Assembly (NCBI GenBank): GCA_034670305.1
Contig: JAXMNT010000043.1
Location: 1 to 62,928 of the forward strand
DNA: 62,928 nt
Direction of reading: 5' to 3'
From: Deltaproteobacteria bacterium
GTDB lineage: Bacteria > Myxococcota_A > Polyangia > Polyangiales > Houyiibacteriaceae
The translations under genes and the position numbers were made by a program. The notes under the pieces are model-generated. The model was not told where the DNA came from, did no database searches, and saw nothing but the letters and a program-made list of their open reading frames with translations. Position 1 is the stretch's first letter. Each line of letters starts with the position of its first letter. Positions 284 through 62,928 of this stretch are shown piece by piece.

Positions 284-320
284 GGGCAAGGGCAAAGGCA
301 AGGGCAGGGGCAAGGGGCAG
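284..320. repeat. (GGGCAA/GGGCAG)n hexamer tract
   Basis: gggcaagggcaaaggcaagggcaggggcaaggggcag directly after the four-helix-bundle stop codon. Confidence 0.9.
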
Positions 321-357
321 GCGCGAGAACGCCCTGCGGGCGTTCTTCAGCAGCCTG

Positions 358-1113
358 CTAGACCGGCAGCGCCCGCAACGAGGGCACCGCCACACCGAGC
401 GCGTCCGCCTGCTCGAGCGCACGCTTCAACCGGGCCGGCGCGCTGCGACCCCGCGCGCCGTGCTCCGGATCTGCCGCGATGGCCCGTTCGAGCATCGTCG
501 TCTGCAGTTCCGCGTCGACGTCTGCCCCGAGCCGCGCGGCCTGAAGCGCCAGCACGTCGACGAGCACGCCCTTCACCAAGTCACGGTGGTCCGCGTAGAG
601 CGCGCCCACCCGGGTGCCGGTCGGCGCCGCGAGCCCCGCGAGGTTCATCGTCAGGATGTAGACGTTCTTGGCGACGAGCTCTTGGATGCGTTGGGCGTCG
701 TCGACGACGCGCGCTGGCAAATCGATCGCGCCCAGCGCGCGCACGACGTGGTCGGCCTTCGGTCCGCCCACCGGCGTGGCTAGAATGACGTTCGTCGCGA
801 TCGACTTCTTCTTCTCGAACCACACCACCGCGACCGTCGGGTGGAGACCGTGTTTCTCCCAGTCGACCGGCAACAGTTCGTTCTGCACCAGCACCACCGA
901 ATCCCGCCACGAGTCGGGCAACGTGGCGAGCACGCCATCCAGGTCCCCCTCGCCCACCGTGATCACCACGAGCGACGGGTCCGGCACCGTGCGCGCGAGG
1001 TTCTCCATGGAGTCGCCGCGGTTGACGGGACGGACCGAGGTGCCCGCGCGCAACAAGCCGTGCGCAAAGATGGAACCGAGTTGACCGAGTCCGACGACGA
1101 CAGCGGGTTGCAT
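358..1113 (-). CDS. Rossmann-fold protein, ketopantoate-reductase-like
   Basis: N-terminal VVVGLGQLG dinucleotide-binding motif, VVLVQNELL, C-terminal helical domain. Confidence 0.55.
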   Translation of the reverse strand: MQPAVVVGLGQLGSIFAHGLLRAGTSVRPVNRGDSMENLARTVPDPSLVVITVGEGDLDGVLATLPDSWRDSVVLVQNELLPVDWEKHGLHPTVAVVWFEKKKSIATNVILATPVGGPKADHVVRALGAIDLPARVVDDAQRIQELVAKNVYILTMNLAGLAAPTGTRVGALYADHRDLVKGVLVDVLALQAARLGADVDAELQTTMLERAIAADPEHGARGRSAPARLKRALEQADALGVAVPSLRALPV

Positions 1114-1190
1114 CTCGGTCTCATACCGAGCCCTTGGGCCCCACGCCACATGGATTGCATCCCAGGCGCTCGCCCCATAGGGTCGCGCCC

Positions 1191-2627: not shown

Positions 2628-4430
2628 ATGACCTTGTTCCCACGCATCTTCACCCTCGCCGTCCTCGCCGCATGCGCGGGCACTGCCCCCAACACCGAAG
2701 CGCCGCGTGCGGCCGACCCGCCGCCGGTCGAGTGGCACGAGTGGGAAGCGGCCTCCTTCGAACGCGCAGCGCGCGAGGGCAAACACCTTCTCGTCAGCGT
2801 GCAGGCAGCGTGGTGCCACTGGTGCCATGTGATGAATGACGAGACGTTCGGCGACGCCGAAGTGCGGGCGCGACTCGCCACGGACTACATCGCGATCAAG
2901 GTGGACTCCGACGCGCGCCCCGACCTCGCCGAGCGGTTTCAGGACTACGCGTGGCCCGCCACCATCCTGCTGAGTCCCGAGGCCGAGGTCGTGCTGCCGC
3001 TTCGAGGTTTCCGCCCGCCGCGCGTCTTCGCGGGGCTCCTGGCCGATGTACGCGCCGGCCGCGAAGTGCACGACACCGACACCCCGGTGGCGCGTCCGAT
3101 CGACGACCTCGACACCGTGCGCTCGGAAGCGACCGCGCTGCTCGACCGACTCTACGACGAGGACGCCGGCGGCTGGGGCGCGCGTCAGAAGTACCCCTAC
3201 GCCGGACCGCTCGAACACGCGATGTTCCGCGCGGCGGTGCTGGGGGAAGGCGAGACTTGGAATGCGCGGATCGAGCACACCCTCGCTGGCCACGCCGCAT
3301 TGATCGACCCGGTGTTCGGCGGCGTCTTTCAGTACTCACTGCCGGGCACAGGCGACGACCGCGCCCGCGGCACAGAGGCGTGGACGCGTCCACACTTCGA
3401 GAAGATCACCGGCGTGCAGGCCGACGCGTTGCAGACCTTCGCGCAGGCCTGTCTGAGCGACGAACGCTGGTGCGCCTCCGCCGAAGACGTGCGTCGCTAC
3501 GTCGCGCGTTTTCTGACTTCGGACACGGGCGGCTTCTACACGAGCCAGGACGCGGACCTCGATCACGAGACCACCGGCACCACGTACTACGCGTGGGACG
3601 AAGCGCAGCGCCTCGAACACGGCGTGCCCCGGGTCGATCAGAACGTCTACGCGGATCTGAACGGCCGGCTCATCGTCGCGCTGGCCGCACTCGACGCCGC
3701 CCGCCCGGAAAGCGAAGCGCGCGCCATGGCGGTCGCTGCGGGCGAGTTCGTGGAGACCACACTTCGTGCGGAAGGTGCGGAGCTCTTCGACCATGGCGGT
3801 GAGGGCACCGGCCTGCAGCATCTCGGCGACACCGCCTGGATGCTCCGCGCCGAACTCGCGCTCTACGAAGCCACCGGCGATCCCGTCTGGCTCGAGCGCG
3901 CAGAGCGCAGCGCCCGTGGCCTGCGCACCCTGGTCTCTCCGGCCGGCGCCCTCTTCGCCCACACCGAAGACCCCGCCGCGGCGGGTGTGTTCGCCGAGCG
4001 CCGCACCCCGCTGACCCTCAACGGCGTCGCCGCGCGCGCGCTGATCCACCTGCACCGCCTCGACCACGACGAAGCCCACCTCGAACTCGCCCTCGGCGCC
4101 CTGCGCGCCGTCGCCGACGCCACCGAACTGCGTCGGCGCGGCCGCCGCATCGGCGAGTACCTGATGGCGCTCGAAGCACTCCGCGCCCCGTACGTACTCT
4201 TGAGCGTCGTCGGCCCCGACGACGCGCCCACCCGCGCCCTCGTCGCCGCAGCCCGCGCCCTCCCCCACCCGAACGCGCTGGTCGAAGTGGGCCGCCCCGG
4301 CGAAAGCCGCTACCCCTACCCCGGCGAACCCGCGGTCTACCTCTGCAACGAATCCCGCTGCTCCATCCCCGTCACCGATCCAAACGCCCTCCCCTCCGCC
4401 GCCACCCGCTTCCTGGCCCCAGCGGAGTAG
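2628..4430 (+). CDS. DUF255/YyaL (SPATA20-like) thioredoxin-domain lipoprotein
   Basis: Lipobox [26 protein letters not shown] and [10 protein letters not shown] motifs. Confidence 0.88.
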
Positions 4431-4433
4431 ACA

Positions 4434-4717
4434 GCGTCGGCTTCGGCTTCGGCTTCGGCGTCGGCGTCGGCGTCGGCGTCGGCTTCGGAGTCGGAGTCGG
4501 CGTCGGCTTCGGCTTCGGCGTCGGCTTCGGCTTCGGCGTCGGCTTCGGCTTCGGCGTCGGAGTCGGCGTCGGCTTCGGCAGCGGCTTCGGCGTCGGCTTC
4601 GGCAGCGGCTTCGGCGTCGGCTTCGGCGTCGGCTTCGGTTTCGGTTTCGGCTTCGGAGTCGGGCTCGGCTTCGGAGAACTCCGGGCACACGGGCACGGGC
4701 ACGGGCACGGCTTCGGC
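4434..4717 (+). repeat. TCGG-NN hexamer array ending in a (GGGCAC)n block
   Basis: TCGGCT/TCGGCG/TCGGAG units 4434-4675, then gggcac repeats 4683-4710; between convergent genes. Confidence 0.95.
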
Positions 4718-4756
4718 GCCAACGTCGAGCCAGCCGCAGCCGCCCCCAAGCGCCCG

Positions 4757-5410
4757 CTACGTGCCGAAGCTCAGAACGAACGCGTCGAACGCATCGCTCG
4801 CGGACTCGACCGTCGCTTCTGGACCGACGAGTTTGAAGAACACCGGGCCTGCCGGCGCCTGGACGATCGCGCCGAGCAAACGCTGCCCCGCCTGCGTTCC
4901 ACCGCCCGCCATCATGCCGGCGGAGAAGTTGCCGCGTACGTCGACGAGATGAACCGAGAGCCCGCCCACGGTGCGCTCGCTCGTCTCCGCTTCGGCCGGC
5001 GTGCCATCCGCTTTCCGGAACTGACCGACCCAGCGCGCGATGTTGTCGTCGACCGACCCACCCATGCCGGGGAAGTGGAACACCGTCATCTCGGCTTCGC
5101 CGGCGCTGCCTGCAATCGCGTACTCGGCGTTGCGCATCGGACGGGTCGGCCGCCGGTAGACGAACGTCTCGGGCGCCGACCACTTCATGCCGCCGAGCAC
5201 CGGAGATGCGGGGTCGAACGGCGTTTGGGGCGGAACCGCGGTGCGCTCCTCCGGTCCTGTCTCGACCACGGTCGTCTCAGCCGGCGGCGGGGCCTGGATC
5301 TCACTCGCCGGCGGCGGCTCGGGTCCCCGGTTGCACCCCAGCACGCCCAGGGCAATCGCGGTCAACAGGAGGAACGAAGTGGCAGCAGCTCGGAACATGC
5401 GGCGAATCAT
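4757..5410 (-). CDS. Lipoprotein of unknown function
   Basis: Lipobox VLGC, Pro-rich linker, then a conserved-looking domain (MRNAEY...[15 protein letters not shown]...FFKLVGP). Confidence 0.75.
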
Positions 5411-6213: not shown

Positions 6214-6966
6214 CTAACCTTGGCCGACGATCGGACCCCACGGGGGCTCGGATTGCACGTCCGCCGGTTCCCCGGACACCTCGATCTCGTCCTCCGGCAT
6301 GAACCGGGGAAGATCGATGCAGAGGATCGACTGCCATCGCTCGGTGGGGTTGTCGTAGCGGTGGGCGGCGCCGCGCGGCCATCGGTGCACGGTGCCCGGC
6401 TGGATTGGCTGCGACTGACACATCAGTCCATCGGTCAGCACCATCTCGCTCTCGCGCATCACCTTGTGCATGTGCAGCGGGATGCCTTGGCCGGGCGCGA
6501 TGTTGAGCCGGTAGATGCCGGCGTCGCGCGTCTCTTCGATGACGTCCACCGACCCCCAAGGTTTGGTCTCCTGCCCGACCTTGCACCAGCTCTGGTCGCG
6601 CCGGATCTCGAGCGAGGGCGTCGCAAAGCCGCGCAGCGCGCCGGGTTTGGTGAGTTTGACGACGACCTCGTCAACGGTTGCGCGTTTGGCACCCGGCGCC
6701 GCGGGCGCGAGCATCAACTTCGCGAGCGTGTGCGCGGCGGTCTCGAGCAACCGAAAGCGCGCGCTCCGGAGTACGAAGACGATCTGAGACGCGACCGCGC
6801 CGTAGTCGACGGTCGAGTGCACCGACTCGGTCTCCGCCGCTTCTTCGGTGTCCAGCATGAGCTGCACGTCCACCCGCAGGGGCTGCGACGCGTGCCGTTC
6901 GTGCGGGTACATGCCGACGACACAGTCCACGCGCAGGTCGTGGATGCGGACGATGTCGCGCTTCAT
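6214..6966 (-). CDS. folB: Dihydroneopterin aldolase fused to a C-terminal cupin domain
   Basis: IHDLRVDCVVGMYPHER..QPLRVD, TVDY, FRLLET, KLTKP; C-terminal IPLHMH...E...GAAHRY cupin motifs. Confidence 0.85.
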   Translation of the reverse strand: MKRDIVRIHDLRVDCVVGMYPHERHASQPLRVDVQLMLDTEEAAETESVHSTVDYGAVASQIVFVLRSARFRLLETAAHTLAKLMLAPAAPGAKRATVDEVVVKLTKPGALRGFATPSLEIRRDQSWCKVGQETKPWGSVDVIEETRDAGIYRLNIAPGQGIPLHMHKVMRESEMVLTDGLMCQSQPIQPGTVHRWPRGAAHRYDNPTERWQSILCIDLPRFMPEDEIEVSGEPADVQSEPPWGPIVGQG

Positions 6967-7010
6967 CGATGGGCCGGTGGGGTGGCTGGGATCACGGAGC
7001 GCACGGTAGC

Positions 7011-7115
7011 AGAAGCCAATGCCGAGGCCGATGCCGAAGCCGACGCCGACGCCGATGCCGATGCCGATGCCGATGCCGAGGCCGATGCCGATGCCGAGGC
7101 CGAGTGCCGATGCCG
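7011..7115 (-). repeat. Hexamer array (GCCGAT/GCCGAG on +, i.e. TCGG-NN on -)
   Basis: Tandem gccgat units between divergent folB and aminotransferase genes. Confidence 0.95.
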
Positions 7116-7180
7116 CCCCGACCTCCCCGACTCTTCGTTCGTTCGGCAGGGCGGGAGGATCTGCTACACGGTGGCGCACG

Positions 7181-8500
7181 ATGTCCGACGCAGCCGACGA
7201 GACCTCTTCCACCACCCTCCCCACCAGCGCTCGATCTCCGAACGATGGGCCGAGTGCGTTTCGGCGCGTGCCGCGAACCGGCGTGATCTACGTGAGTGAA
7301 GCCGCCCGGGCACGTGGGTTTCATCTCGGCAAAAGCGGCACCGGCCCGGAGGCGTGGTGCAACTTGGGGCAGGGCCAGCCGGACACGGGCCACCTAGACG
7401 GGGCGCCGGCGCGGCTGACCTCGATCGACATCCTCCCGGACGACCTCGACTACGCGCCGGTCGCCGGACTCATGGAGCTCCGGGAGGCCGTCGCCGCGAT
7501 GTACAACCGGCTCTTCCGCCAGGGCATGCCCTCGCAGTACGGACCCGAGAACGTGGCCATCTGTGGCGGCGGACGGGTGGCGATCATGCGCGCGTGTGCC
7601 GCCATCGCGCCGGTGCACCTCGGACACTTCCTGCCGGACTACACCGCGTACGAAGAGCTCCTCGATGTGTTCCGGCGCTTTCAGCCGATCCCGATCCTGC
7701 TCGATCCGGATCGCGGGTACGAGTTCACCAACGAGGAACTGCACCGCGAGATCCTTGGGCGCGGGCTCGGCGCGATCTTGATGAGCAACGCCTGCAATCC
7801 GACCGGCAAACTCGTGCAAGGCGAGGTGCTCTCCAAGTGGGTCCACACGGCGCGCACGCTCGGCTGCGCGCTCTTGATGGACGAGTTCTACTCCCACTAC
7901 GTGTGGGCCGGCCCAGAGAAGATCGTGAGCGCCGCGCGCTACGTCGAAGACGTGAACCGCGACCCCGTCGTGATCTTCGACGGCCTCACCAAGAACTGGC
8001 GGTACCCCGGGTTCCGCGTGAGCTGGATCGTGGGGCCCAAACACGTCATCGACTCCGCCGCGAGCGCCGGGTCCTTCCTGGACGGCGGCGGTTCGGCGCC
8101 GATGCAGCGGGCCGCCATTCCGCTCCTCGAACCCGCCTACGTGGCCGCCGAGACCGACGCCCTGCGCGCCGCCTTCGCGCCGAAACGACAGCTCTTGCTC
8201 GATCGCCTTGGCGCGATGGGTGTGAAGTTCGACCTCGCGCCCGAAGGCACGTTCTACGCGTGGGGCGACGTGCGGAACCTGCCCGGTTCACTGTCGACGG
8301 GCGAAGGGTTCTTCGAAGCTGCGCTCGACCACAAGGTCATCACGGTGCCGGGACACTTCTTCGACGTGAACCCGGGCAAACGCCGGATGGGTCGTCCCTC
8401 CCGGTTCCGGCACCACGTGCGCTTCAGCTTCGGCCCGAACATCGAGGTGCTCGAAGAAGCGATGAAGCGGCTCGAAGCCGTGGTGCGGGGTGCCTCGTGA
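7181..8500 (+). CDS. PLP-dependent aminotransferase, class I/II
   Basis: NLGQGQPD, SNACNPTG, DEFY, GLTKNWRYPGFRVSW (PLP Lys), VRFSF. Confidence 0.9.
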   Translation: MSDAADETSSTTLPTSARSPNDGPSAFRRVPRTGVIYVSEAARARGFHLGKSGTGPEAWCNLGQGQPDTGHLDGAPARLTSIDILPDDLDYAPVAGLMELREAVAAMYNRLFRQGMPSQYGPENVAICGGGRVAIMRACAAIAPVHLGHFLPDYTAYEELLDVFRRFQPIPILLDPDRGYEFTNEELHREILGRGLGAILMSNACNPTGKLVQGEVLSKWVHTARTLGCALLMDEFYSHYVWAGPEKIVSAARYVEDVNRDPVVIFDGLTKNWRYPGFRVSWIVGPKHVIDSAASAGSFLDGGGSAPMQRAAIPLLEPAYVAAETDALRAAFAPKRQLLLDRLGAMGVKFDLAPEGTFYAWGDVRNLPGSLSTGEGFFEAALDHKVITVPGHFFDVNPGKRRMGRPSRFRHHVRFSFGPNIEVLEEAMKRLEAVVRGAS

Positions 8501-10800: not shown

Positions 10801-10990
10801 GTTCGGCTCCGGCGTCGGCTCCCGCGTTGGCATCGCCATCGGCATCGCCATCGGCTTCGGCGTCGGATTCGGCGTCGGATTCGGCTTCGGCTTCGGCTTC
10901 GCCATCGGCTTCGGCATCGGCGTCGGCTTCGGCTTCGGCTTCGCCATCGGCTTCGGCATCGGCGTCAGCGTCGGCATCGGCTCCGGATCG
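10801..10990 (+). repeat. TCGG-NN hexamer array
   Basis: TCGGCT/TCGGCA/TCGGAT/TCGCCA units between co-directional genes. Confidence 0.95.
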
Positions 10991-11068: not shown

Positions 11069-13096
11069 ATGCGCATCGCCTTCACCCACAACCTCCAGCG
11101 CTCCGGCGCCGAGGAGGAGGCGGAGTTCGACACCGCCGAAACCGTCCGGTTCATCCAGCGCGCGCTCGAGCGGCTCGGCCACCAGGTCGACCTGGTCGAC
11201 GTCGCCGGCTCCGCGGCGCGCCTGACCGCACGCCTCGAGGCGCTCCGACCGGACCTCGTGTTCAACACAGCCGAAGGCACCCACGGGCGTTTCCGGGAAG
11301 CGTTCTACCCCGCCCTCTTCGAACAACTCGGTCTGCCCTACACCGGCTCGGACCCGTACGTCTGCACCCTCACGCTCGACAAGGAGCTCACGAAGCTCGT
11401 GCTCGCCGGCCACTCGGTGCGCGCGCCGCTCGGCAAGGTCGTGCACACGCTCGCGGAAGTCGACGCACTCACCTTCCGGTTCCCCGTCATCGTGAAACCG
11501 AACCACGAAGGCAGCTCGAAAGGCATCACCGAAGACTCGGTCGTCGACGACCTGCCGGCGCTGCGCGCACGCTGCGAATCCGCCTGGGCGCGCTTCGATG
11601 GTGGCCTACTGATCGAAGAGTTCATCGTCGGGCGCGACGTGGTCGTTCCCTTCGTCGAAGGCGCGAGCCCGGAGACCGGCGGCGTGCTCGAACCTGCCTC
11701 GTACCGCTTCGACGAAGCCGTCGTGGGCAAGCGCAAGCACGTCATCTACGACTACTCGCTCAAGAGCACGCTCTCGGACGCGGTGCATGTCGAAGTGCCC
11801 GCGCAGGTGGACGACGCGGTGCGCGCGACGTTGATGGAGACCTCTCGAGTCGTGTTCGAGGCGCTCAAGATCCGGGACGCCGCGCGCATCGACTTCCGCG
11901 TCACCGACGAAGGCGAAGTGTTCTTCATCGAGATCAACGCGCTGCCGTCGTTCGAACCGGGTGCGAGCATCTACCTCTGCGCCGCGCGGGTCGGGCTCGA
12001 AGATCCCACCGAGGTGATCGGCTCAGTCGTCGACAGCGCGGCGAAGCGCTTCGGGATCGAGTCGAAGAAGACCACCGCGACCGGCAGCCTCAAGGCGCGT
12101 CGGCGTGGACGGCCGGTTCGCGTTGGGCTGACCCACAACGTCAAACGGGGCAGCGACGAGACCCAGGCCGAGTTCGACTCTCCCGAGACCATCGAATCGA
12201 TTCGGGCCGCGATCGCGTCCTTCGGCCACGAGGTCGTCTTGCTCGAAGCGCGGGCCGACTTGCCCGCCCGCATCGCCGAGTCGCAGATCGACGTGGCGTT
12301 CAACATCGCGGAGGGACTCGTCGGTCGCGCGCGAGAATCCCAGGTGCCCTCCCTGCTCGAGTTGCTCGGCCTGCCGTACACCGGCTCGGACCCGTCGACG
12401 TTGAGCCTCTGCCTCGACAAGGCGCTCGCCAAGCAGGTCGTCGAGCACGCCGGCGTGCCGGTGCCGCTCGGCCTCGTCTGGCGCACGGGCAAAGAGAAAC
12501 TCCCGAAGGACTTCCCCTTCCCGGCGCTGGCGAAGCCCGTCGCGGAAGGCAGCTCGAAGGGCATCGGGGGCGGGGTCTGCCGCACCGAAGCGGAGCTGCG
12601 CGAGACGGTCCGCGCGCTGGTCGACGCGTACGCGCAGCCGGTGCTGGTCGAGACCTTCTTGCCGGGCCGGGAGTTCACCATCGGACTGCTCGGCGCGAGC
12701 CGCCCAAGGGTGTTGCCGCCGCTCGAGATCCTGTTCCAGGAGTCCGCCGACGAGCTGCCGATCTACTCGTACGCCCACAAGTTCGAAGGCAAACCGATCC
12801 AGTTCGAGGTGCCGGCCAAGGTGGACGCCAAACTCGGCGCGGAACTCGAACGCGTCGGCCGCAAGGCGTTCCGCGCGCTCGGCTGCCGCGACGTCGCGCG
12901 CATCGACGTGCGCTGCGACGGGCACGGCAAAGTGCACTTCATCGAGTGCAACCCGCTCCCCGGGCTCAGTCCCGGCTTCTCGGATCTCTGCGTGATCGCG
13001 GAATCGACCGGCATGTCGCACCAGGATCTCATCGGCGAGATCCTCGCCCCCGCCCTGCGCCGCGGCGGCTTCCGGATCTCACGCGACCCAGCCTAG
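11069..13096 (+). CDS. Tandem two-domain D-Ala-D-Ala-ligase-like ATP-grasp protein
   Basis: Two full copies: [20 protein letters not shown] / [16 protein letters not shown] / [13 protein letters not shown] / FIECNPLPG. Confidence 0.88.
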
Positions 13097-13100
13097 CGCC

Positions 13101-13393
13101 GGTTCGGCTTCGGAGTCGGAGTCGGAGTCGGCTTCGGAGTCGGCTTCGGTTTCGGCGTCGGCTTCGGAGTCGGCTTCGGCGTCGGCGTCGGCTTCGGCGT
13201 CGGCTTCGGCTTCGGCGTCGGCGTCGGCTTCGGCTTCGGAGTCGGCTTCGGCTTCGGCGTCGGCTTCGGAGTCGGCTTCGGCGTCGGAGTCGGCTTCGGC
13301 TTCGGCTTCGGCTTCGCTTCGGAGTCGGCGTCGGCCTCAGCGTCGGATTCGGCTTCGATTCGGACGGGCCACGGGCACGGGCACGCACACGGC
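13101..13393 (+). repeat. TCGG-NN hexamer array ending in a (GGGCAC)n block
   Basis: TCGGCT/TCGGAG/TCGGCG units, then acgggcacgggcacg; between convergent genes. Confidence 0.95.
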
Positions 13394-13407
13394 CACCTCC
13401 TACCCGC

Positions 13408-16769: not shown

Positions 16770-16777
16770 GGCCGCGG

Positions 16778-49401: not shown

Positions 49402-49581
49402 CGGGCTTCCGATTTCGGCGTCGGCGTCGGCTTCGGCGTCGGCGTCGGCGTCGGTTTCGGCGTCGGTTTCGGTTTCGGTTTCGGTTTCGGCGTCGGCGTC
49501 GGCGTCGGCTTCGGCTTCGGCGTCGGCTTCGGCTTCGGCGTCGGCTTCGGCGTCGGCGTCCGCTTCGGCTTCGGCGTCGGC
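49402..49581 (+). repeat. TCGG-NN hexamer array
   Basis: TCGGCG/TCGGTT/TCGGCT units abutting the methyltransferase stop. Confidence 0.95.
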
Positions 49582-50385
49582 CTAGCCGAGCCGCGCCTTC
49601 ATCACCGCGATCGCTTCCGGGTTCTCGTCGATCAGCACGTAGCCGCGACCGTTGCGCTGGGCCGCGTCACCGGTGGTGCCGCTGCCGGCGAAGAAGTCGA
49701 GCACCACGTCGCCGGGGGCGGAGTGGACCTTGACGACACGCTCGAGCACCCCGAGCGGTTTCTGGGTTGGGTAGCCGGTCTTCTCGGCGCCGTTGGTCGG
49801 CACGATCGTGTGCCACCAGACATCGGTCGGGGTCTTGCCACGCGCCCGCTTCTCGGGCGTCACCAACCCCGGCGCCATGTACGGGATGCGGTCCATCGCC
49901 TCGAAGTCGAAACAGTAGCGCTTTGGATCGCGCGTGTACCAGAGCAGCACGTCGTGTTTCGACGACCACTTCTTCTTGCTGCGGCCACCGAAGTCGTACG
50001 CCCAGACGATCTCGTTCTGGAAGGACGCCCGCCCAAACAATCCATCCAGCGCGACCTTCACGTAGTGCGACTCGCGCGGGTCGACGTGCACGATGAACGA
50101 CGCATCCTCGGTCGTGCACGGGATCGACGCTTCGACCCTCTCCATCAGCCACGGGACGTAGTCCTCAAACGAGTCCCGGTAGCTCCCGCTCTTCTTCACG
50201 ACATCCGCGTACCGCCGCCCCCCGAACCCGACGCGGGCGCCGTCCTTGTCCTGCGACGACTCGATGCGCCGCCGCTTCTGAACCTTGCCGGTGTTGAACG
50301 GAGGATCGATGTACACCAGCCGCGCGAACGCCCGAGGCAAGGTCGGAAGCACCGACAAACACTCCCCCAGCAAGACGTCCTTCAT
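49582..50385 (-). CDS. Beta-class N6-adenine/N4-cytosine DNA methyltransferase, orphan
   Basis: VYIDPPF (motif IV) N-terminal; [22 protein letters not shown] (motif I) C-terminal. Confidence 0.92.
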
Positions 50386-50444: not shown

Positions 50445-50577
50445 CGCATCGGCATCGGCATCGGCATCGGCTTCGGGCATCGGCTTCGGCTTCGGCCTCG
50501 GCGTCGGCTTCGGCATCGGCCTCGGCCTCGGCTTCGGCGTCGGCATCGGCTTCGGCATCGGCATCGGCCACGGCACC
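50445..50577 (+). repeat. TCGG-NN hexamer array
   Basis: TCGGCA/TCGGCT/TCGGCC units between divergent genes. Confidence 0.95.
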
Positions 50578-54808: not shown

Positions 54809-57800
54809 GTGGAGGTCGCGCGCCATCGTCGAAGCGTCCAGCGGCGCTGGTTGGGTGGCGGGCTCGTCGCGGTGGCGGCTGGTTTCTGGCTGTTCTCGCG
54901 TGGACCGGCCCTGCATCAGAAGGCGACCATGGCGGGCGAGGTCTCGCTCGATGCGCTCGGCTTCGACACCGTTCTGACGGCCACGGCCACCGATCCCTGG
55001 TGGTGGTCGGTGCTCGCGGTGACGGTGAACTGGTTCGCGACCAACCGCGTCGGCATGGTGTTCGGCATCGTCTTCGGCGCGGGTCTGATGACCCTGCTCG
55101 CTACAACCGCACGGGAGGGTTCGGGGCCCGCGCGGCGCAAGGGGCTCTGGGGCGCGGCAACCGGCACGGCGGCGGGCGCACCGCTGGGTGTGTGTGTGAA
55201 CTGCGCGGCGCCGATCGCAGAAGGCCTCGCTGTCGGGGGCGCGAGCGCGGAGACCGCCATCGCGGCGGCCATCGCGTCGCCGACGTTGAACGTCGTCGCG
55301 GTGATCTTGCTGTTCACCCTGTTCCCACTCCATGTGGCGCTCGTGAAGATTGCGTTGCTGCTCGTGGTCCTGTTCGTCGTCGTGCCGGTGGCCTCGCGCC
55401 GCGCCCCCGCGAAGGCGCCCACGGCCCCCAGCATCCGACCAGCGGTGCCGGACGCGTCGGGACCTGCATTCCGGTCCGTCGTGGGGGCGTGGGCCCGGAA
55501 CCTCGTCTTGCTGGTCCGCCGCACGGTGCCGCCCATGCTCGCCGCCGGACTGCTCGGCGCCGTGATCATCCTCGTGCTTCCGCTCGATCGTTTGCCCGAA
55601 CTCATCGTGGCGGAGAGCGTGCCCGCGGCGCTTCTGTGGAGTCTCGGGCTGGCGGTGTTCGGAACGTTGCTGCCGGTCCCGATCACGTTCGACGTCATCG
55701 TCTGTGCGGTGCTCTACGCGGCGGGTCTGCCACTTCGGTACGTCGCAGTGCTTCTCTTCACGCTCGGGAGCTACAGCGTCTACGCCGGGTTCATCGTGGG
55801 CCGCGCGACTTCGTGGCGCGCGAGCGCGGTCGTCTTCGCCGGCGTCGTGACGCTGGGGGTGCTCGCCGGCGACCTGACCCAGACGTTCGACAACCGGGTG
55901 CGCCGGGCGGCACTTGGAGAGATCGATCGGCTCGAGGGAGACGAGCCCTGGCCGGCCGCGCCCGAAGAGGGCGCGACGACGGGCTTCGTCGTCGAGGACG
56001 GGCCGAGGGACCTCGCGATGCGGGCATCGTCCGGTTCCGAAGCGACACTGGCCTCGGTGGACGCGCAGGCGATGGGTTTGTGGGCGGCCGCTTCGGAGCG
56101 CGCACGGGCGGCCGAACGGAGTCTGCTCCGGCTGGAGTATCCGTTCGTGCAGGGGCGGGGACGGAGTCTGGCGGTCGCGGATGTGAACGGCGATGCGGTG
56201 GACGACCTGCTGGTGGTGGCGGATGGGAACGTCTTCGCGTTCGTGCAGCGGCTGGAGCCTGCGACGCACTTCGACCGACATCTGATCGCGACGGAGCAGA
56301 TGCTCGGATCGACGCCGCTGTTCGCGATGGCGGTGGACCGGGACGCGCGCGCGGGGGTGGACGTGTTCGTGGGGACGATGCGGGGCGGGGTGTGGCTGCG
56401 GCCGGAGGCGGCGGTGGCGGCGGCGGCAGAGACAGCGGCGGAGACAGCGGCAGAGACAGCGGCAGCGGCAGCGGCAGCGGCAGCGGCAGCGGCAGCGGCA
56501 GCGGCAGAGACAGCGGCGGCGGCAGACGCCGACTCCGACGCCGAAGCCGAAGCCGATGCCGAAACCGATGCCGACTCCGACTCCGACTCCGACTCCGAAG
56601 CCGAAACCGAAGCCGAAACCGAAGCCGACCCCGATGCCGACTCCGACTCCGACTCCGACTCCGAAACCGAAGCCGAAACCGACTCCGATGCCGACTCCGA
56701 CGCCGACGCCGAAGCCGATGCCGACTCCGATGCCGACTCCGACGCCGAAGCCGATGCCGAAGCCGACTCCGACTCCGATGCCGACTTCGCTGTCGGGTTG
56801 CGGCGGTATTTGGTTGGGGAGCGGGTGGGGGACGGGATGGTGGCGGCGGCGGCGTTTGGGGATGTGGATGGGGATGGGTTGGTGGACGTGTTGCTCTCGG
56901 AGTGGGGGGCGGCGTGGCGAAGTCCGTGGAAGACGGCGGGGGCGTCGCGGGACCGGCTGTTTCTTGCGAGCGGGGAAGTCGCGCTGCCGTCGACACCAGG
57001 AGCGGCGACGACCGCCCTCGTTGCGGACCTGGATGGGCGCGGTGGCATGGAGCTGTACGTCGGCCACGACTTCGGGGCGCCCGATGCGGTGTACGCGCGC
57101 GCGGATGGGTCCGGGTGGCGGCGGGACGATGCGCGCTTTCCCCAGACCACGCGGGACACCATGGGCGTGGCGCTCGGGGACTTGGATCGAGATGGTCGCG
57201 CGGAGTTGTTCTTCAGCGACATCGCGCACCCGGACGAGACCGGCTCTGCGCTGGAGGACGCGCAAGCGTGCGAGCAGAATGTCGAATGCGTCCGCCGCCG
57301 GGAAGAGACGCGGCGCTACCTGTCCCTGCGCCAACGGTCGTCCCCGGAAGAGTGCGCGCACGCCGGCGACCCGATCGACTGCCGGGCCGCGTTCTTCGTC
57401 GGACTCGCCCACACGTTTCCTGGGACCGCAGCGTGCGCGCTCCCCGCTGGCTGGCCGCGGTTGCGCGCGCTGTGTGAGTCGAACGCGGGGTCGGCGTTCC
57501 TTCCCGATCCGGACACACGCCGATTGGGCCCGCCGCAAACCCGCGGTCGCAATGTCCTGTTGCAGTGGTCGGACGAAACGGGGGGATGGTCGGTCGTCTC
57601 CGCACCGACCTTGGAACACCTTGGATGGACGTGGAACGCCGAGTTCGCGGACCTCGACGCCGACGGTCGGCTGGATGTCGTCGCCGCCACCGGCACCCCG
57701 ATCGAACTCAACCGCCCCGAGTCCAACGTCGCCCTTCGCCAGACCGCGCCCTTCACCTTCGAGCCCGCGTGGGGTTCACTCGACGACTCGGCCACCGCCA

Positions 57801-58165
57801 GCATCGTCACGATCGATCTCGATGCGGACGGCGACCTCGACGTCGTCTCGTTCCCGATGACCGGCCCCATGCGGGCGTGGCGCAACGACTTGTCGACCGG
57901 CCACACTGCGATTCTCGAACTGCGCCAGGCTGGGCCCAACCCCGCCGCCCTCGGAAGCCGGGTCACCGTTCACGCAGGCGAAGCGATGCAGACGCACTGG
58001 GTCAAGGTCGGGGGCGGCTACCTCTCGCAGCCTGGCACGCGGCTGCATCTGGGCCTCGGGGATCAGGAAGGCGCGGACATCGACGTCGAGTGGCCGGACG
58101 GTACGCAGAGCCGGCACCACGTCGTCGCCGGCCGGCGACAGGTCGTCGAACGACCGCTGCCGTAA
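54809..58165 (+). CDS. Predicted permease (DUF318/ArsP-like) fused to FG-GAP repeats and an ASPIC/UnbV domain; interrupted in frame by a hexamer array (start uncertain)
   Basis: About 8 TM helices with [14 protein letters not shown] and SPTLN; DVNGD, DVDGDG, DLDRDG, DLDADG repeats; NPAALGSRV...GGGYLSQ...LHLGLG...WPDG. Confidence 0.8.
56407..56786 (-). repeat. Intragenic bipartite hexamer array encoding poly-Ala then (D/E-A/S/T)n
   Basis: gcggca/gagaca block, then gccgac/tccgac/gccgaa block (TCGG-NN on -); frame preserved. Confidence 0.95.
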
Positions 58166-58167
58166 AC

Positions 58168-58745
58168 GCGGAAGCCGGCGCCGACGCCGACGCCGGCGCC
58201 GACGCCGACGCCGACGCCGAGGCCGAAGCCGAAGCCGAAGCCGAAGCCGAGGCTACAAACCGTGCGACTCCGAAGGAGAGCATGGCTGCTGTTGCTGCCG
58301 CTGTTGCTGCCGCTGTTGCTGCCGCTGTTGCTGCCGCTGTCTCTGCCGCTGACCCTGCCGCTGACTCTGCCGCTGACCCTGCCGCTGACCCTGCCGCTGA
58401 CTCTGCCGCTGACTCTGACTCTGACTCTGACTCTGACTCTGACTCTGACTCTGACTCTGACACTGCCGGCCGAAGCCGAGGCCGAAGCCGAAGCCGAACC
58501 CGAACCCGAACCCGAAGCCGAGGCCGAAGCCGAACCCGAACCCGAACCCGAACCCGAACCCGAAGCCGAACCCGAAGCCGAAGCCGAACCCGAAGCCGAC
58601 GCCGAAGCCGAACCCGAAGCCGACGCCGAGGCCGAGGCCGAGGCCGACCGCCGAGGCCGACGCCAACGCCGACGCCGATGCCGATGCCGACGCCGATGCC
58701 GAGGCCCGCTGCCCGTTTGCGGCTTCGCGCTTCCGCTTCCGCGTC
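58168..58745 (-). repeat. Large composite hexamer array
   Basis: gccgac/gccgaa block, ctgccg/ctgact block, cccgaa/gccgaa block, ttccgc tail. Confidence 0.95.
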
Positions 58746-58766
58746 TGCTTCCGTACCCTCCCGCCG

Positions 58767-59255
58767 GTGCAACACCTGGGGGAACAGGTTCGGGGGTCGG
58801 CGACGGAGTGGGTGGTCGATTCGGCATCGGGCGGCAACGGCGCCGTTGCGCTCGCGATCCTCGTCGCGTCCGCGCTCGGGCTCGCGGTCTACGCGCACGC
58901 GCATCGAAGGCGTCGTCGCGACACCTTGCGTCGACATGTGCGCGCACAGATCGACGAACGCTACGGGCCTTTGGATGCGTTGCGGGCACGGGCCGAGCGC
59001 GAAGGCCTCCCCGCCGTCCTGGACGACGCGCGCGCCGTCCTTCGACGCACCGAATCGCTGGCACTCACGGCCGGCGAGGGGGACGCGTTGCATGCCGCGA
59101 ACGACGACAGTGGCACCGACGTCTTCGATGCCCTGACCCGGTCGCTCAAGGAATTGCGGACGCGGCATGGCCGCTTGCTGGAGGGGCGCTCGGCCCAAGT
59201 GCCCCCGTCCGGGTCCAACGACCTCCCGGGCGAACGGTTGGGCGGGCCGGAATGA
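58767..59255 (+). CDS. Small hypothetical membrane protein, coupled to the kinase
   Basis: One TM helix followed by an Arg cluster; stop overlaps the kinase start (ATGA); start uncertain. Confidence 0.5.
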
Positions 59256-62200
59256 GCGCGGAAGCGCTGTTCTACGCGCCCGGCGAATCGATCGCCGGCT
59301 TTCGCATCCTGGAGATTCTCGGGCGCGGCGGCGTGGGCACGGTGTACGGCGCCGTCTCGCCCGAGGGTCGGCCGGTCGCGCTGAAAGTCGCCCACTCGTC
59401 GGACGGTGTGCTCCACGGCGACTGGCTCCGCCGCGAAGCACGGGTCGCGGCGCGGCTGCGTCACCCGCACATCGTGGAAGTGCTCGGCGTGGGCGAGCTG
59501 CAAGAAGGGGCCGCCTCGCGTCCGTTCTTGGTGCTCGGCCGCGTCCAAGGCGACGCGCTGGAGCGGCTCGCGGATCGACTGAGCTCGGCGGAGATCGCGC
59601 GCCTCGCCGACCAGCTGTTGGATGCGCTTGGGTACGCCCACGACTCGGGCGTGCTGCACCTCGACGTGAGCCCGAACAACATTCTCATTCGGGCCGGAGA
59701 CGGTGCCGCCCTGCTCACGGACTTCGGTCTCTCGTCGCCGCGCGACCGGCGAGAAGGGGAAACCCGAACGCTGATCGCGGGCACGCCCGGGTACATGAGC
59801 CCCGAGCAGGCACTCGGCGCGGGCGGGGTGGGTCCGCGGTCGGACCTCTACGCGCTCGGCGCGGTGCTCTACCGGCTCATCTCGGGGTTCCCTCCGCACA
59901 CCGGTCGCACCGGCCCCGAGATCATCCGGCGCACGCTGAACGACGAAGCCGTGCCCCTGAAAGAACGACCCGGCATCCACCTGGGTGCCGCGGCCTGCGC
60001 AGTCGTGGATGCGTTGTTGAGGCGGGGCGCCGAAGACCGGCCGCCGTGCGCGGCGGTCGCACGCCAGCTGTGGCGAGAGGCCACGGACCACGTGAAGCGT
60101 CCAGCGACGGTGTCGATGGTGGCGCCCACGCCGGCCATTGGCATCACCCGCGCGACCCTGATCGCGACCCAGGCGATGGAACTGCCCGTGGTTCCGGATG
60201 GGCCCACCCGTCCCGGACAGAGCGTACGCACGGCGGTGGTCGCGACGCCTGCCCGCGGCGCGCGCCGACCGTCGCTTCAACCGACGGGCGCGGGTGGTCG
60301 CGAGGCGGTGATCGAGGCGTTGCTGCTGGCCACCGAGGGCAGCCAGATCGTGCGCCTCGTCGGCCCGCGCGGCAGCGGCCGTTCGCACATCTTCGACTGC
60401 CTCCGCCGGTTCCTGCACGAGCGCGACCACGCAGTCGCGTGGTGCACCGGACGACGGGCCACCGACGCGCCGCCGATGGAGACCATCGCCGCGCTGGCGG
60501 TCGACTTGGTCGGGGCATCGGTCGGCCCGCCGTGGGTCGTCGCCGAGAGACTGGCGCTCGCACTCGACACCGTCGGAGGCGGTGCGCTGCGGTTGGGTCG
60601 CGACGCGCTGACCCAAGGCGTGCTCGGCATCACCCGACGCCCACCGCTCGGCGGTGCGCGGCTCGAGACGTTTCGTGCGATGCATCTCCTGCGCCCACCG
60701 GGGCGCCCGCTGACGTTGTTGGTCGACGACGCCGATCGCATCGACGCCGACTCGCTGGAAATTCTACGCGACCTCGCGCGCGGTGGGGTCGGCGTCGTGC
60801 TCGCCAGCTGCTCGGAAGACGCCGCCGACCCGTCCGTCCATGTGCCGGCCCTCTCGATGGACCGGCGACTGGTGCTCGCCGGCGACGAGGCGTTGGCCCA
60901 TTCCGACGCGACTCTGGCCGACCTCGCACTCGCCGGGGGTCTCCGGCAAGGCCAGTCGAAGAGCGCCGAAGCGCGCATCCGACACGCGCTCGACATCATC
61001 GGCTCCGCGGAGCACGACGCACTCGCCATCGCGGCGCTGCTCCATGGAGAAGCGCCGGTTCGTGCACTCGGCGCACTGGGCGGCGCGGCCGGGGTCGACG
61101 CCGTGGATGCGTTGATGGACGTGGGCTGGATCATCCCGGTCGCACACGCAGCTGCGCGCGCCGAGAACTGGTGTCGACTGCGGTCGCCCCTGCTCGAGGC
61201 CTGCATTCGAGACGCGACGCGCGAAGACCGGACCCGCCCGCTCGAAGTCGCGCGCTGGTTCACCCGTCAGTGTTTCGACCAGAGCCTCGGCGTGCTCGAG
61301 ACGGTGGCCGACCTCGCCACCCACGCCGGCGAGGAGAAGTTGGCCGCGTTCGCAGCCGCCGAAGTCGGCCGGCGTGCAGCGACGCTTCACGACCCGAACG
61401 CTCAGCGGTGGATCCAGCGGGCGCTCGACTCGGCCACCGAAGGCACCTCGAGCGCGGTCGACTCTGCGTCGCTGAGGGTCGAACTCGCGCAGCTCCACGC
61501 GCTGGCCGGAGAGACCGAGTCGTGTGAACGCGAGGCCCTTGCCGCGCTCGGTGAACTCGGTGAAGAGCGGCGCTTGCTTCGCGCCCGCGCGCTCGGTTGT
61601 CTCGGTCGCGCGCGGGCGGAGCTCGGCGATCCGGAGGCATCGGTGCAACGGTTCCGGCAAGCAGTGCACGCCGTCGAAGGCAGCGACCCGACGGAGCTCG
61701 CCACCGCCCTCTCCTCGCTCGCGTGGCAGCTCGGCTACGGCATGGGACAGACGGCGGAAGCCATCGCGCTGATGCAGCGCGCCCTCCAGGAAGCCGAACG
61801 CATCGACACCCCACTCTTCCGCGCCCGGCTCTGCGGTCGACTCGGCGCCGTGCAACTGCGCGCGGGCGACTGGGATGGACAGCTCATCACCAACTGGACC
61901 GACCTCGGGCTCTCCATGCTCGCCGGCGACATCTCGGGGGTCGTGCGTGGCCACATCAACATCGGCGTCTGCTTCACCAACCGCGGTCTGTTGACGCTGG
62001 CCCGCGCACACACCGAAGAGGCCGCGTTCCTCGCGGAAGCGCATGGCGGCTGGACGGCCGCACACATCGCGCAGAACAACCTCGCCACCATCGCGTGCGA
62101 CCAACACCGCCACGACGACGCCGTGTTCCATGTCGCGACCGCCAACCGACTCGCCGCACGCCGCGGTGTCTCGCCACTGTGCGAGACCTGGGCGGTGCGG

Positions 62201-62506
62201 GTCCGGCTGTGCATCCGCGCGGGCGACCTCGCGGGCGCCCGCGCCGCATGGACATTGATGCAGGAGTCCGCCCGCGGCGCCGAGCGTCCCCTCTGTGCCC
62301 GGATCGGCGCACTGCTCGAGGACGGAACCGAGAGACTGCAGGCCGCGGTCGCAGAGGGCATCGCCGACCCCTACGACGACGCCGCCACGCGTCTCAGCCT
62401 GGCAGCCCGTCGAGGAGACGAGCCGGCGGAGTCCGCGGCCATCGCCCGACTGATCGAACTCGGCGCCGACCCGGACCTGGAACGCCGCCGCTGGCTCGAA
62501 CCGTAG
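59252..62506 (+). CDS. Ser/Thr kinase with a degenerate P-loop NTPase domain and TPR region
   Basis: [43 protein letters not shown] and LLVDD; C-terminal TPR-like helices. Confidence 0.85.
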
Positions 62507-62539
62507 GAAGCGACCGCCGATCGCGGTGAGGTCTGCGGA

Positions 62540-62928
62540 CTGACGCTGCTGCCACTGCCGCTGCCGCTGCCGCTGACGCTGACGCTGACGCTGACCTCTG
62601 CCGCTGACTCTGCTGCTGACTCTGCTGCTGACTCTGCTGCTGACTCCGCTGCTGACTCTGCTGCTGACTCTGCTGCTGACTCTGCTGCTGACTCTGCTGC
62701 TGACTCCGCTGCTGACTCTGCTGCTGACTCTGCTGCTGACTCTGCTGCTGACTCTGCTGCTGACTCTGCTGGCCGAGGCCGAGGCCGAAGCCGAAGCCGA
62801 GGCCGAAGCCGAGGCCGAAGCCGAGGCCGAAGCCGAGGCCGAAGCCGAGGCCGAAGCCGAGGCCGAAGCCGAGGCCGAAGCCGAGGCCGAAGCCGAGGCC
62901 GAAGCCGAGGCCGAAGCCGAGGCCGAAG
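62540..62928 (-). repeat. Composite hexamer array running off the window end
   Basis: (ctgctg actctg)n, then (gccgag gccgaa)n to the last base. Confidence 0.95.

Follow-up and report, generated by a model that had tools for sequence, protein, structure and literature searches.

What are the runs of six-base repeats that fill many of the spacers of a myxobacterial chromosome, and why do so many of them carry the same end? The question is raised by contig JAXMNT010000043.1 of assembly GCA_034670305.1, a short-read metagenome bin of 7.93 Mb in 105 contigs with 68% G+C; the window analysed here is the entire contig of 62,928 bp. An earlier note, made from the letters of the window alone, had listed about 15 dispersed hexamer tracts covering about 6% of it, had pointed out that five arrays with a TCGG core end on the same side in a GGGCAC or GGGCAA block, and had argued from this for a common origin or a protein-recognised family over independent slippage. 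We propose, with a probability of roughly 0.55, that the tracts are the satellite component, made of 6- or 12-base units, of lineage-specific modular dispersed intergenic elements. The fixed block order of the arrays probably derives from repeated, probably mobile modules and goes beyond what random slippage would give.

Abundance and placement of the hexamer arrays

The region covered by the window is ordinary chromosome. Genes were called with a self-trained codon-usage model, which returned 5915 genes covering 88% of the genome, and of 43 window genes compared with Pfam, 37 have matches that fit the calls, the other 6 being without a match. A D-Ala-D-Ala-ligase-like protein encoded in the window is 59% identical to a protein of Enhygromyxa salina and 56% identical to one of a Nannocystaceae metagenome-assembled genome (MAG), and the organism is therefore taken to be a marine-type, Enhygromyxa-like myxobacterium.

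Tracts were detected with Tandem Repeats Finder (TRF) in the window and with our own period-6 detector genome-wide. In the window TRF recovers all of the tracts listed previously. Together with the period-12 parts found by TRF only, the period-6 detector yields 16 period-6/12 tracts that add up to ~3.7 kb or 5.9% of the 62,928 bp, close to what the earlier note had estimated; by itself the detector marks 3485 bp in 23 pieces. The units stand head to tail, as in simple sequence repeats, with TRF periods of 6, 12 or 18. The period is looser than the strict 6 nt that had been described, as the TRF matches range from 71 to 100%.

A genome-wide scan, which the earlier note had recommended, found 1766 period-6 arrays that occupy 183 kb or 2.3% of the DNA, compared with 2 arrays (64 bp) in 2 Mb of simulated third-order Markov sequence. 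When repeats are sorted by best period, periods 6 and 12 account for 209 kb, period 5 for 2.4 kb and period 7 for 0.8 kb. Arrays of at least 60 bp number 779, with a TCGG/CCGA core plus two variable bases in 389 and an overlapping CGGC core in 158. For counts of placement and polarity a stricter rule was used to define a TCGG-family set of 553 arrays (108 kb), of which 291 lie on one strand and 262 on the other.

These TCGG arrays are found in 168 of 880 convergent spacers, in 208 of 3457 tandem spacers and in 41 of 912 divergent spacers, while 111 of the remainder lie mostly within called genes and 25 at contig edges. The median distance from an array is 33 nt to a stop codon and 111 nt to a start codon. 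Convergent spacers have a median length of 325 nt with arrays and of 45 nt without them, and where present the arrays fill a median of 70% of the spacer. A comparison of filled and empty sites, also suggested by the earlier note, was possible behind the ligase-like gene, where a 300-bp tract occupies 13096–13396. The orthologous spacers at 23 loci of other genomes, including two E. salina strains, carry no TCGG-type array (2 of the 23 have short GAGCGN tracts), which indicates that the tract is a lineage-specific gain. TCGG-core arrays with other variable bases are spread over several of the order's families, being present in 22 of 41 genomes, and also occur in Kofleriaceae loci. In the open-access literature, a coverage that leaves subscription journals outside, we found no description of these myxobacterial hexamer arrays. 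CRISPR arrays, which have repeats of 23–50 nt and unique spacers, were considered and rejected, since the units here are 6 nt long and have no spacers between them.

An independent check on the sequence came from Logan contigs of four "plastic metagenome" runs, all from one study that is possibly the source of the assembly. In all four runs the contigs end at the edges of all six arrays examined and none bridges an array; they do reach into the edge of every examined array, with 0 differences in the flanks. Because no Logan contig crosses an array, array lengths and internal order are those of the assembly alone. In the assembly itself, 129 of 210 contig ends lie in a period-6 tract or at most 60 nt from one.

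Block order, polarity and a shared junction

Polarity was scored for the 553 TCGG arrays, read on the TCGG strand, in flanks of up to 100 nt; a 60-nt version gave similar results. The block (GGGCAN)3 lies on the 3' side in 103 cases and on the 5' side in 14, and its reverse complement lies on the 5' side in 22 and on the 3' side in 1. Likewise, (CAGNNN)4 is on the 3' side in 33 cases and on the 5' side in 13, and (CTTCCG)3 on the 3' side in 24 and on the 5' side in 1. The block order is thus non-random genome-wide, with a shared end block. This extends the observation made on the five window arrays that begin at 4434, 13096, 16464, 21232 and 29807, all of which do bear the end block on the same side, on the + strand, as (CACGGG)3.8, (ACGGGC)5.3, (CGGGCA)3.7, (CACGGG)5 and (CAAGGG)6.2, respectively, in TRF notation.

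No large-scale polarity is seen because neighbouring arrays are not co-oriented: 245 adjacent pairs point the same way and 221 are opposed. Orientation is only weakly linked to local GC skew (r = -0.28), with 105 plus and 162 minus arrays where the skew is positive and 186 plus and 100 minus where it is negative. The replichore-scale orientation that had been raised earlier was rejected on these grounds, as far as an assembly in 105 contigs can show.

A non-repetitive junction, GGG-AACCGC(G/A)CATCCTCTCC-TTCGGATTCGG, with a unique part of 17–20 nt, joins the G block (the GGGCAN block) to the start of a TCGG array at ~20 dispersed loci; the count comprises 25 matches with at most 2 mismatches, ~5 of them unrelated. 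Exact copies of CATCCTCTCC number 79 genome-wide, and TTCGGA follows in 34 of the 79. Multi-block orders also recur at separate loci. A G block is present on either side of 142 of 442 non-coding TCGG arrays. A 5' C block accompanies arrays in 26 rows, 12 of which (two being one locus) have a 3' G block as well, with the layout stop, hairpin, C block, TCGG array, G block, hairpin, stop; one of these double-ended arrays has an identical hairpin sequence at both ends. Taken together, the polarity, the discrete end module, the shared junction and the recurring block orders argue for common descent of at least a subset of the arrays. Stop-codon readthrough, or a single conserved frame across spacer arrays, was rejected by inspection, as start frames differ between genes and the lengths of the linkers between blocks vary.

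The end module and a high-copy insertion element

The end block is a separate module, outside the microsatellite proper. It consists of ~five GGGCAN units, GGG and a GC-rich hairpin with CTA(G) at the end of its outer arm; for the gene on the opposite strand, this CTA serves as the stop codon. By inspection, at least four (GGGCAN) units followed by GGG fit a G-quadruplex pattern of no fewer than four runs of three or more G that stand 1–7 bases apart, which here is a predicted motif only. Blocks of at least three GGGCAN units occur 466 times genome-wide, 129 of them as the right end of an insertion sequence (IS); on the outer side, 148 of the 466 face the start of a gene and 291 the end of one. 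The 334 non-IS blocks have a TCGG array on their inner side 140 times and a CCGA array 30 times, and this strand bias is the polarity that the earlier note had noticed. A hairpin follows 97 of the 334 compared with 17 in shuffled sequence. Where G blocks face a convergent gene, its stop codon is in the outer arm of the hairpin or at most 3 nt after it in 49 of 71 cases, and the stops beside G-block hairpins are TAG in 51 and TGA in 14, against a genome baseline of 1557 TAG stops in 5354 genes (29%). Many of the hairpins of the 334 blocks retain the AGCAGG...CCTGCTAG foot of the IS end with different tops, and the 334 blocks are diverged relatives of the high-copy version.

The IS in question, which also takes a MITE form (miniature inverted-repeat transposable element), is present in ~125 near-identical copies with 97–100% identity. 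Its ends are inverted (CTAGCAGGYTGCTGAA...): the left end reads CTAGCAGGYTGCTGAAGA... and the right end, as its reverse complement, CTAGCAGGTCGCTGAAAA...; a hairpin and then a hexamer block make up each of the two. There are 124 left ends, which start with CTAGCAGGYTGC, and 120 exact right-end cores, and the unrelated outer flanks of both diverge right past CTAG. Copies of ~670 bp have CTAG at both sides, and copies of ~300–700 bp are internally deleted, MITE-like derivatives. Inside the right end lie the last ~45 codons of a DDE transposase gene (PF13751, 79–124 of 125; PF01609, 160–200 of 200), and inside the left end the 3' part of a four-helix-bundle gene. The element is located at TAG stop codons. 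It contains 141 of the 210 contig ends, among them the start of the window. A search of the genomes of other species for an autonomous copy, with the exact left-end 36-mer, gave no match. At other transposons, transposase-binding repeats resemble the sub-terminal hexamer blocks of these ends. In a Kofleriaceae MAG (L141, JANRKM010000292.1) a (TCTCGG)n array at 4608–4791 stands right behind TTAGCAGG, a sequence similar to the foot, CTAGCAGG, of the IS/MITE end.

A link to Y1 transposases, as in repetitive extragenic palindromic (REP) sequences and their associated tyrosine transposases (RAYTs), was also examined. None of the 11 Y1 (IS200/RAYT-like, PF01797) genes of the genome is bracketed by G-block/hairpin modules, and one adjoins an IS/MITE right end. 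A REP/RAYT system was rejected because these 11 genes carry a different conserved flank. The copies lie at C20:45490–46050, C31:83254–83946, C38:23610–24161 and eight further places, and their flank includes the palindrome GCAGCAGCATGCTGCTGC, a repeat family separate from the arrays.

Cassettes of array, leader and mini-gene

A second module is built around a small gene of family PF05635 (23S rRNA intervening-sequence/four-helix-bundle proteins). The genome has 47 matches to this family, 39 of which exceed the 33.8-bit cut-off, and these mini-genes encode 104 to ~130 residues. A period-6 array lies at most 800 nt upstream of 43 of the 47, compared with 15.9% of 5354 genes, and at most 450 nt downstream of 33 of the 47, compared with 21.4% of genes. 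Cassettes can be grouped into classes, and array type and orientation are particular to each class. Upstream, class A carries (CCGCTT)n, class B (TCGG)n and then (CAGNNN)n, and class C (GCCGAN)n; class B has (TCGG)n downstream as well. Between the array and the start codon of the mini-gene is a leader of ~200–250 nt. The 5' part of the leader is TCGG-rich and holds the CTCTCCTTCGGA...TCGGATTCGG sequence of the junction, which makes it a plausible proto-array because the junction sequence is shared.

The same layout is found outside the source genome. A complete, single-contig genome of 9.07 Mb from another genus has 30 mini-gene copies, with array, leader and gene in this arrangement at 19 of the 20 places examined and several tail-to-tail pairs. 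At 7848146–7848833, 6939257–6939943 and 8530204–8530888 of that genome (G012:C1) such tail-to-tail mini-genes belong to two leader/array subfamilies, with one shared hairpin between the stops. Across 40 leaders from the two genomes there is a common long-range helix, in which 8 of 10 pairs vary on both sides. Pairing holds in 93.8% of cells, compared with 62.0% in shuffled leaders (0/500) and 26–56% when the partners are slid. Rfam gave no match at E ≤ 0.1 for eight cassette or composite loci. One mini-gene copy matches PDB 2GSC with an E value of 1.5e-5.

According to the available part of one account, PF05635 resembles Avd, the accessory protein of diversity-generating retroelements (DGRs) and a partner of reverse transcriptase (RT) and RNA (PMC10053308). 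The present genome has only 3 RVT_1 matches, all with the retron type XIII (RT_XIII) as best type in PADLOC (C23:86418–87011, C10:168437–169069 and C67:18832–19467), and none is beside a mini-gene. No DGR-type RT is among the three, template and variable repeats not having been searched for. An RT-templated origin of the arrays was rejected in view of the three retron RTs being the only ones. PF05635 has also been listed among CRISPR-array-associated genes (PMC10910872, as far as its accessible text goes), and repeat arrays of the present kind might be the source of that association.

Strand asymmetry

Folding predictions separate the two strands of an array. As RNA of 144 nt, the TCGG strand has predicted folding energies of -92 and -98 kcal/mol (z -6.5 and -9.0); the complementary strand reaches -21 kcal/mol, worse than all 200 shuffles. 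As DNA, the predicted values are ~-33 kcal/mol for the TCGG strand and -6 to -9.5 kcal/mol for the other. In this model the TCGG strand forms long hairpins containing G-U or G-T pairs and the CCGA strand is unusually unstructured. Of the 96 arrays wholly in called genes, 74 have CCGA as the sense strand and 22 have TCGG, and 60 of the 96 encode Ala-Glu (37) or Ala-Asp (23) dipeptides. In tandem spacers the TCGG strand is sense in 136 and antisense in 72. Both orientation biases, in coding tracts and in tandem spacers, fit the folding asymmetry. Between 3500 and 22500 of the window we counted 7 terminator-like sites, compared with 9.3 ± 3.1 in shuffles; the G-block hairpins do not have the form of intrinsic terminators, as they precede CCC(TTGCCC)n and have no U run.

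The tracts of the window

The TRF arrays of the window (periods 6, 12, 18 or 42) lie at 284–316, 4437–4710, 7015–7115, 10802–10986, 13103–13396, 16464–16705, 21232–21529, 28768–28927, 29807–30117, 40339–40480, 49415–49581, 50446–50568, 56417–56785, 58166–58753 and 62555–62928. The earlier note had placed them between convergent, divergent and tandem genes and once inside a coding sequence, and these contexts are borne out, with one further tract (7008–7115) in a called open reading frame (ORF). A BLAST search of the window with cassette sequences returned, besides matches to arrays, a class-B leader fragment at 58241–58304 and the MITE end at 1–361.

The contig begins inside the IS/MITE, the left end of which, read inward, spans 1–361 on the - strand. 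Its parts are CTAG at 358–361, where CTA is the TAG stop of the - strand gene 358–1149, a hairpin at ~325–357, a sub-terminal block at 283–312 (GGGCAA GGGCAA AGGCAA GGGCAG GGGCAA) and a PF05635 four-helix-bundle gene remnant at 3–275 on the + strand, with a score of 24.2 bits that is under the curated cut-off of 33.8. The tract at 284–316 is thus the sub-terminal block of an IS/MITE end and not the end of a TCGG array. A GC-rich insert of ~65 nt (…CGCGAAGCGAGCC…GGGACGGGGTTTGGGGGCTGTGCCCCCAAG…) at ~139–205 splits the remnant. The same insert recurs in a class-C mini-gene leader of the source genome (contig C10, near 57100) and is probably another small repeat family, since it recurs inside the leader of a second cassette.

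All five arrays with an end block are on the + strand. At 4434–4674, (TCGGNN)40 begins 4 nt past the TAG stop of a thioredoxin-like gene (2628–4430), and its (GGGCAC) end block of 3.8 units (4688–4710, +) is 47 nt from the stop of the - strand gene 4757–5410. At 13096–13357, (TCGGNN)43 follows immediately after the TAG stop (13094–13096) of the ligase-like gene and is succeeded at 13364–13396 (+) by a (GGGCAC)-type block of 5.3 units with an 81% match, 12 nt from the stop of the - strand gene 13408–14679. The tract at 16464–16705 consists of (TCGGNN)36 and then (GGGCAC)3.7 at 16684–16705, in the convergent spacer of a ferritin-like gene and a D12 methyltransferase gene; between this G block and the methyltransferase stop are three perfect copies of the 22-nt unit GGGCCTCGCCTTTCGGCTCGGC (16704–16771). 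At 21232–21529 the start of (TCGGCA)40 faces the start of mlaE, and 20 nt separate the end of (GGGCAC)5 at 21500–21529 from the alanine racemase stop codon (gene 21549–22589, - strand). The three-block composite (GAAGCG)27, (TCGGCT)18, (GGGCAA)6 at 29807–30117 spans from the TAG stop of the gene 29007–29807 to 58 nt before tRNA-Leu(CAA) at 30175–30259, the sole match in an Rfam search of the window.

Several arrays have no end block of this kind. On the + strand, (TCGGNN)31 at 10802–10986 is in a tandem spacer, with the stop of a peptidase S58 gene at 10789 before it and the start of the D-Ala-D-Ala-ligase-like gene at 11069 after it; (TCGGNN)23.5 at 40339–40480 is in a convergent spacer, 10 nt past the stop of the gene 39292–40329; (TCGGCG/CT)28 at 49415–49581 abuts the stop of an N6/N4 methyltransferase gene (49582–50385, - strand); and (TCGGCA)20 at 50446–50568 is in the divergent spacer between this methyltransferase gene and a tetratricopeptide repeat gene. 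At 7008–7115, between a folB-like gene and an aminotransferase gene, the plus strand reads (GCCGAN)17, which puts TCGG on the minus strand; the tract falls within the called ORF 6214–7224 yet upstream of the FolB domain, and it is a coding tract only putatively. The divergent spacer of a Ser/Thr kinase gene and a phosphatase-family gene holds (CGGTCG)9.5 and (GAAGCT)17 at 28768–28927, with no strand assigned; these are the related GCGG-NN blocks of the earlier note.

The in-frame tract at 56398–56786 has its TCGG strand on the minus strand and lies in an FG-GAP/ASPIC gene (54851–58165, +). The CCGA strand is sense, and the product contains a run of Ala and, after it, a (Asp/Glu)-(Ala/Ser/Thr) linker of ~120 residues. 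Directly behind this gene, the composite at 58166–58753 (-) reads on the minus strand (GGAAGC)5, (TCGGNN)39, (CAGAGT/CAGCGG/CAGCAA)n, a class-B leader fragment and (TCGGCT/CG)14, the last of which abuts the ASPIC gene stop; the leader fragment, 60 nt at ~58241–58304, thus lies between two arrays. At the other end of the contig the composite at 62539–62928 (-) reads on the minus strand (TCGGCY)26, (CAGCAGCAGAGT)16, (CAGCGK)n, 33 nt and the TAG stop of the kinase gene 59252–62506, and the contig terminates within its array. The order (TCGGCY)n, (CAGCAGCAGAGT)n, (CAGCGK)n is the one found upstream of the four-helix-bundle gene on contig C46.

Some further features were observed. The two DNA methyltransferase genes of the window (16778–17566, D12-class N6-adenine; 49582–50385, N6/N4) each have an array or G block abutting the stop. 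Tandem repeats of 15 bases occur at 27399–27540 (9.9 copies, in a Ser/Thr kinase gene), at 39370–39538 (11.3 copies, in an unassigned ORF) and at 49254–49338 (5.7 copies, in the spacer 5' of a glutaminyl cyclase gene). At 15848–15893 the Logan contigs of all four runs break, the summed depth rises ~10-fold and variants are present at 15875, 15878 and 15885, which points to a short multi-copy element in the divergent spacer of corA-like and ferritin-like genes.

Origin of the arrays

The arrays stand in a set order with two non-repetitive modules, which we propose to be their carriers. One comprises the GGGCAN units, GGG and the CTAG-ended hairpin, and it also forms both inverted ends of the ~125-copy IS/MITE. 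The other comprises a hexamer array, the ~250-nt leader with its conserved long-range helix and the Avd-like mini-gene. The class-B order (TCGG array, CAGNNN array, leader, mini-gene) and the order of the IS/MITE left end (mini-gene remnant, G block, hairpin, CTAG) together reproduce the polarity seen genome-wide. Such elements would seed and spread proto-arrays, candidate seeds being the TCGG-rich 5' part of the leader and the TCG-rich sub-terminal parts of the IS. Slipped-strand mispairing would then expand the units and reshuffle them at each locus, and copies without a mini-gene would be deletion derivatives. Arrays would persist mainly behind genes, and most between convergent genes, likely because the elements enter at CTAG/TAG and because selection acts against the interruption of promoters and coding frames. 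Movement of the elements, CTAG as a target and the seeding of arrays by modules are all proposed from sequence comparison.

Several observations weigh against this proposal. End modules bound both sides of only 12 of the 553 arrays (26 rows examined), so bounding of the MITE type is rare, and 236 of the 442 non-coding arrays have no G, CAGNNN or CTTCCG block at a distance of up to 120 nt. Arrays and G blocks also occur apart from each other: one relative has 857 TCGG-pattern and 32 G-block matches, and a relative in another genus of the family has 458 G-block pattern matches and 1 TCGG-array match. The latter genome keeps the same order of linker, G block, hairpin and gene end, and the G-block module is older and more widespread than the arrays; a second-genus genome (G017) with 4 G blocks in 360 kb has too few for a polarity count. 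The assembly contains no full-length transposase, only C-terminal remnants of ~45 residues, with a contig cut-off of 2 kb below which a collapsed copy could fall. The CTAG on both sides of the IS/MITE could stem from target duplication or could belong to the inverted repeat, and movement is suggested by sequence only. Mini-gene copy number follows array abundance only loosely. The covariation of the leader comes from only five or six sequence subfamilies, and few independent events therefore stand behind it. Finally, the genes were called with a home-made codon-usage caller, and the Pfam check of the calls was restricted to the window.

A bolder version, which we regard as possible though doubtful, would unite array, covarying leader and mini-gene in a single self-propagating cassette of marine myxobacteria that is hitherto undescribed and has no enzyme of its own for spreading, most naked polar arrays being its footprints or future entry sites. 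It could spread by homologous recombination into existing arrays as landing pads, or through the DDE element, whose ends share the G-block/hairpin module.

If instead TCGGNN were simply expansion-prone, each tract could be an independent slippage microsatellite that grew in place, with G blocks, IS ends and mini-genes as separate families in the same permissive spacers. This would accommodate the arrays without a module, the TCGG-core arrays with other variable bases in 22 of 41 genomes and Kofleriaceae, the slipped hairpins that folding predicts to be possible on the TCGG strand, and the occupation of spacers that are otherwise ~45 nt long. Nevertheless, we consider it unlikely, because independent co-location would lack the strand bias of the inner side of G blocks (140 TCGG to 30 CCGA) and would not give an identical non-repetitive junction at ~20 loci, an array type and orientation specific to cassette class in two genera, or the same multi-block order at different loci. 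The common origin raised by the earlier note is therefore supported in part, for at least the subset marked by junction, module and block order, and slippage is still needed for the array bodies. Selection by the host for 3'-end elements, such as terminators, RNA stabilisers, Rho loading sites or insulators between converging genes, would agree with the preference for convergent spacers, with the 33 nt to a stop as against 111 nt to a start, with the sense bias in tandem spacers and with the strong predicted folding of TCGG-sense RNA beside an unstructured other strand; moreover, on the sense strand of the adjacent gene the stop is directly followed by the hairpin and then by a block of which 50% is C. 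Against such a role, which seems quite unlikely to us, both orientations are common, arrays also occur in divergent spacers and coding sequence, the outer side of the G block faces a gene start in 148 cases beside 291 gene ends, terminator patterns are no more frequent than in shuffles (7 and 9.3), and relatives have no array in orthologous spacers; as the site is empty in relatives, the genes manage without one.

A protein might also make or read the arrays: the four-helix-bundle protein or a transposase could bind the tracts, or leader RNA could template their synthesis in the manner of telomerase or rolling-circle reverse transcription. The tight linkage of arrays to mini-gene and structured leader, the near-exclusive period of 6 and the likeness of PF05635 to Avd, which in the accessible text of PMC10053308 works with reverse transcriptase and RNA, would suit this. 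We think it very unlikely, given only 3 retron-type RTs, none beside a mini-gene, and 779 arrays of at least 60 bp to 47 mini-gene matches. It is hardly credible that the tracts or their lengths are artefacts of short-read metagenome assembly. No independent contig bridges the six arrays and 129 of 210 contig ends are in or near a period-6 tract, but contigs of four runs enter every array edge with identical flanks, the same kind of array is present in the single-contig 9.07-Mb genome of another genus, and in-frame tracts leave their reading frames open. We thus favour modular, probably mobile elements as the carriers of a satellite that slippage has since remodelled.

Relation to known systems

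One of the closest parallels to these modular elements is BrickBuilt, a Porphyromonas gingivalis MITE whose "leader" and "tail" subunits enclose a minisatellite (Klein et al. 2015, PMC4596501). As described in the available part of that paper, it shares with the present elements an intergenic, multi-copy, modular structure, a spacer-free array between non-repetitive subunits and small inverted-repeat ends. BrickBuilt has a 23-nt unit and 19 copies, whereas here the unit is 6 nt and hundreds of loci make up 2.3% of the genome. Compared with what is accessible of that description, the present system also differs in its several array types, G-rich sub-terminal blocks and CTAG/stop-codon placement, and in its linkage to a mini-gene and structured leader, with most arrays being without both end modules.

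REP sequences, bacterial interspersed mosaic elements (BIMEs) and REP doublets forming hairpins (REPINs), with GTAG- or CGTC-tagged palindromes (PMC3116915, PMC3733652), are likewise dispersed GC-rich hairpins behind genes with a tetranucleotide foot. In contrast to these, going by the parts of the sources at hand, the tag here is CTAG, the Y1 genes have flanks of their own and the high-copy element has remnants of a DDE transposase. G-quadruplex-hairpin motifs of E. coli (PMC5100583, in the portion available) resemble the end module in having a tract that fits G3N3G3N3G3N3G3 beside a hairpin. ORF-bearing 23S rRNA intervening sequences and Avd (PMC10053308, same excerpt) have a mini-gene of the same Pfam family that is multi-copy; unlike those, the mini-genes here lie outside rRNA and are preceded by a hexamer array and a covarying leader without an Rfam match. 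In a survey of short tandem repeats (STRs), bacterial genomes are on average either not enriched in them or depleted (PMC12699852); compared with the part of the survey consulted, this genome stands out with 183 kb of STRs, polar block grammar, shared junctions and modules.

The array bodies themselves look like other prokaryotic simple sequence repeats and variable-number tandem repeats in having imperfect head-to-tail 6-base units, change presumed to occur by slippage, and in-frame occurrence inside genes. Long repeats of this sort have reportedly been surveyed in prokaryotes by Mrazek and co-workers. DDE insertion sequences of the IS5/IS1182 type and their MITE derivatives have inverted ends, a 4-base palindromic site and deleted non-autonomous copies. 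The IS/MITE matches these traits in its inverted ends, CTAG on both sides, deleted copies and a transposase C-terminus with PF01609/PF13751. It differs in the hairpin and hexamer block at each end, in the four-helix-bundle remnant and in having no autonomous copy in the assembly, and the family is a candidate assignment only.

Significance

Tandem repeats are normally scarce in bacterial genomes, and in this 7.9-Mb genome hexamer satellite with a reproducible grammar makes up 2.3% of the DNA. If mobile modules do carry and seed the arrays, the system would be a bacterial counterpart of the microsatellites seeded by transposons in eukaryotes. It would also account for the poor assembly of such genomes, two thirds of the contig ends lying in one element. 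The link between mini-gene and leader offers a handle on the long-unexplained four-helix-bundle/23S rRNA intervening-sequence protein family, and the IS ends at TAG stops, each of which brings a hairpin right behind the stop of the neighbouring gene, provide a testable case of low-damage insertion.

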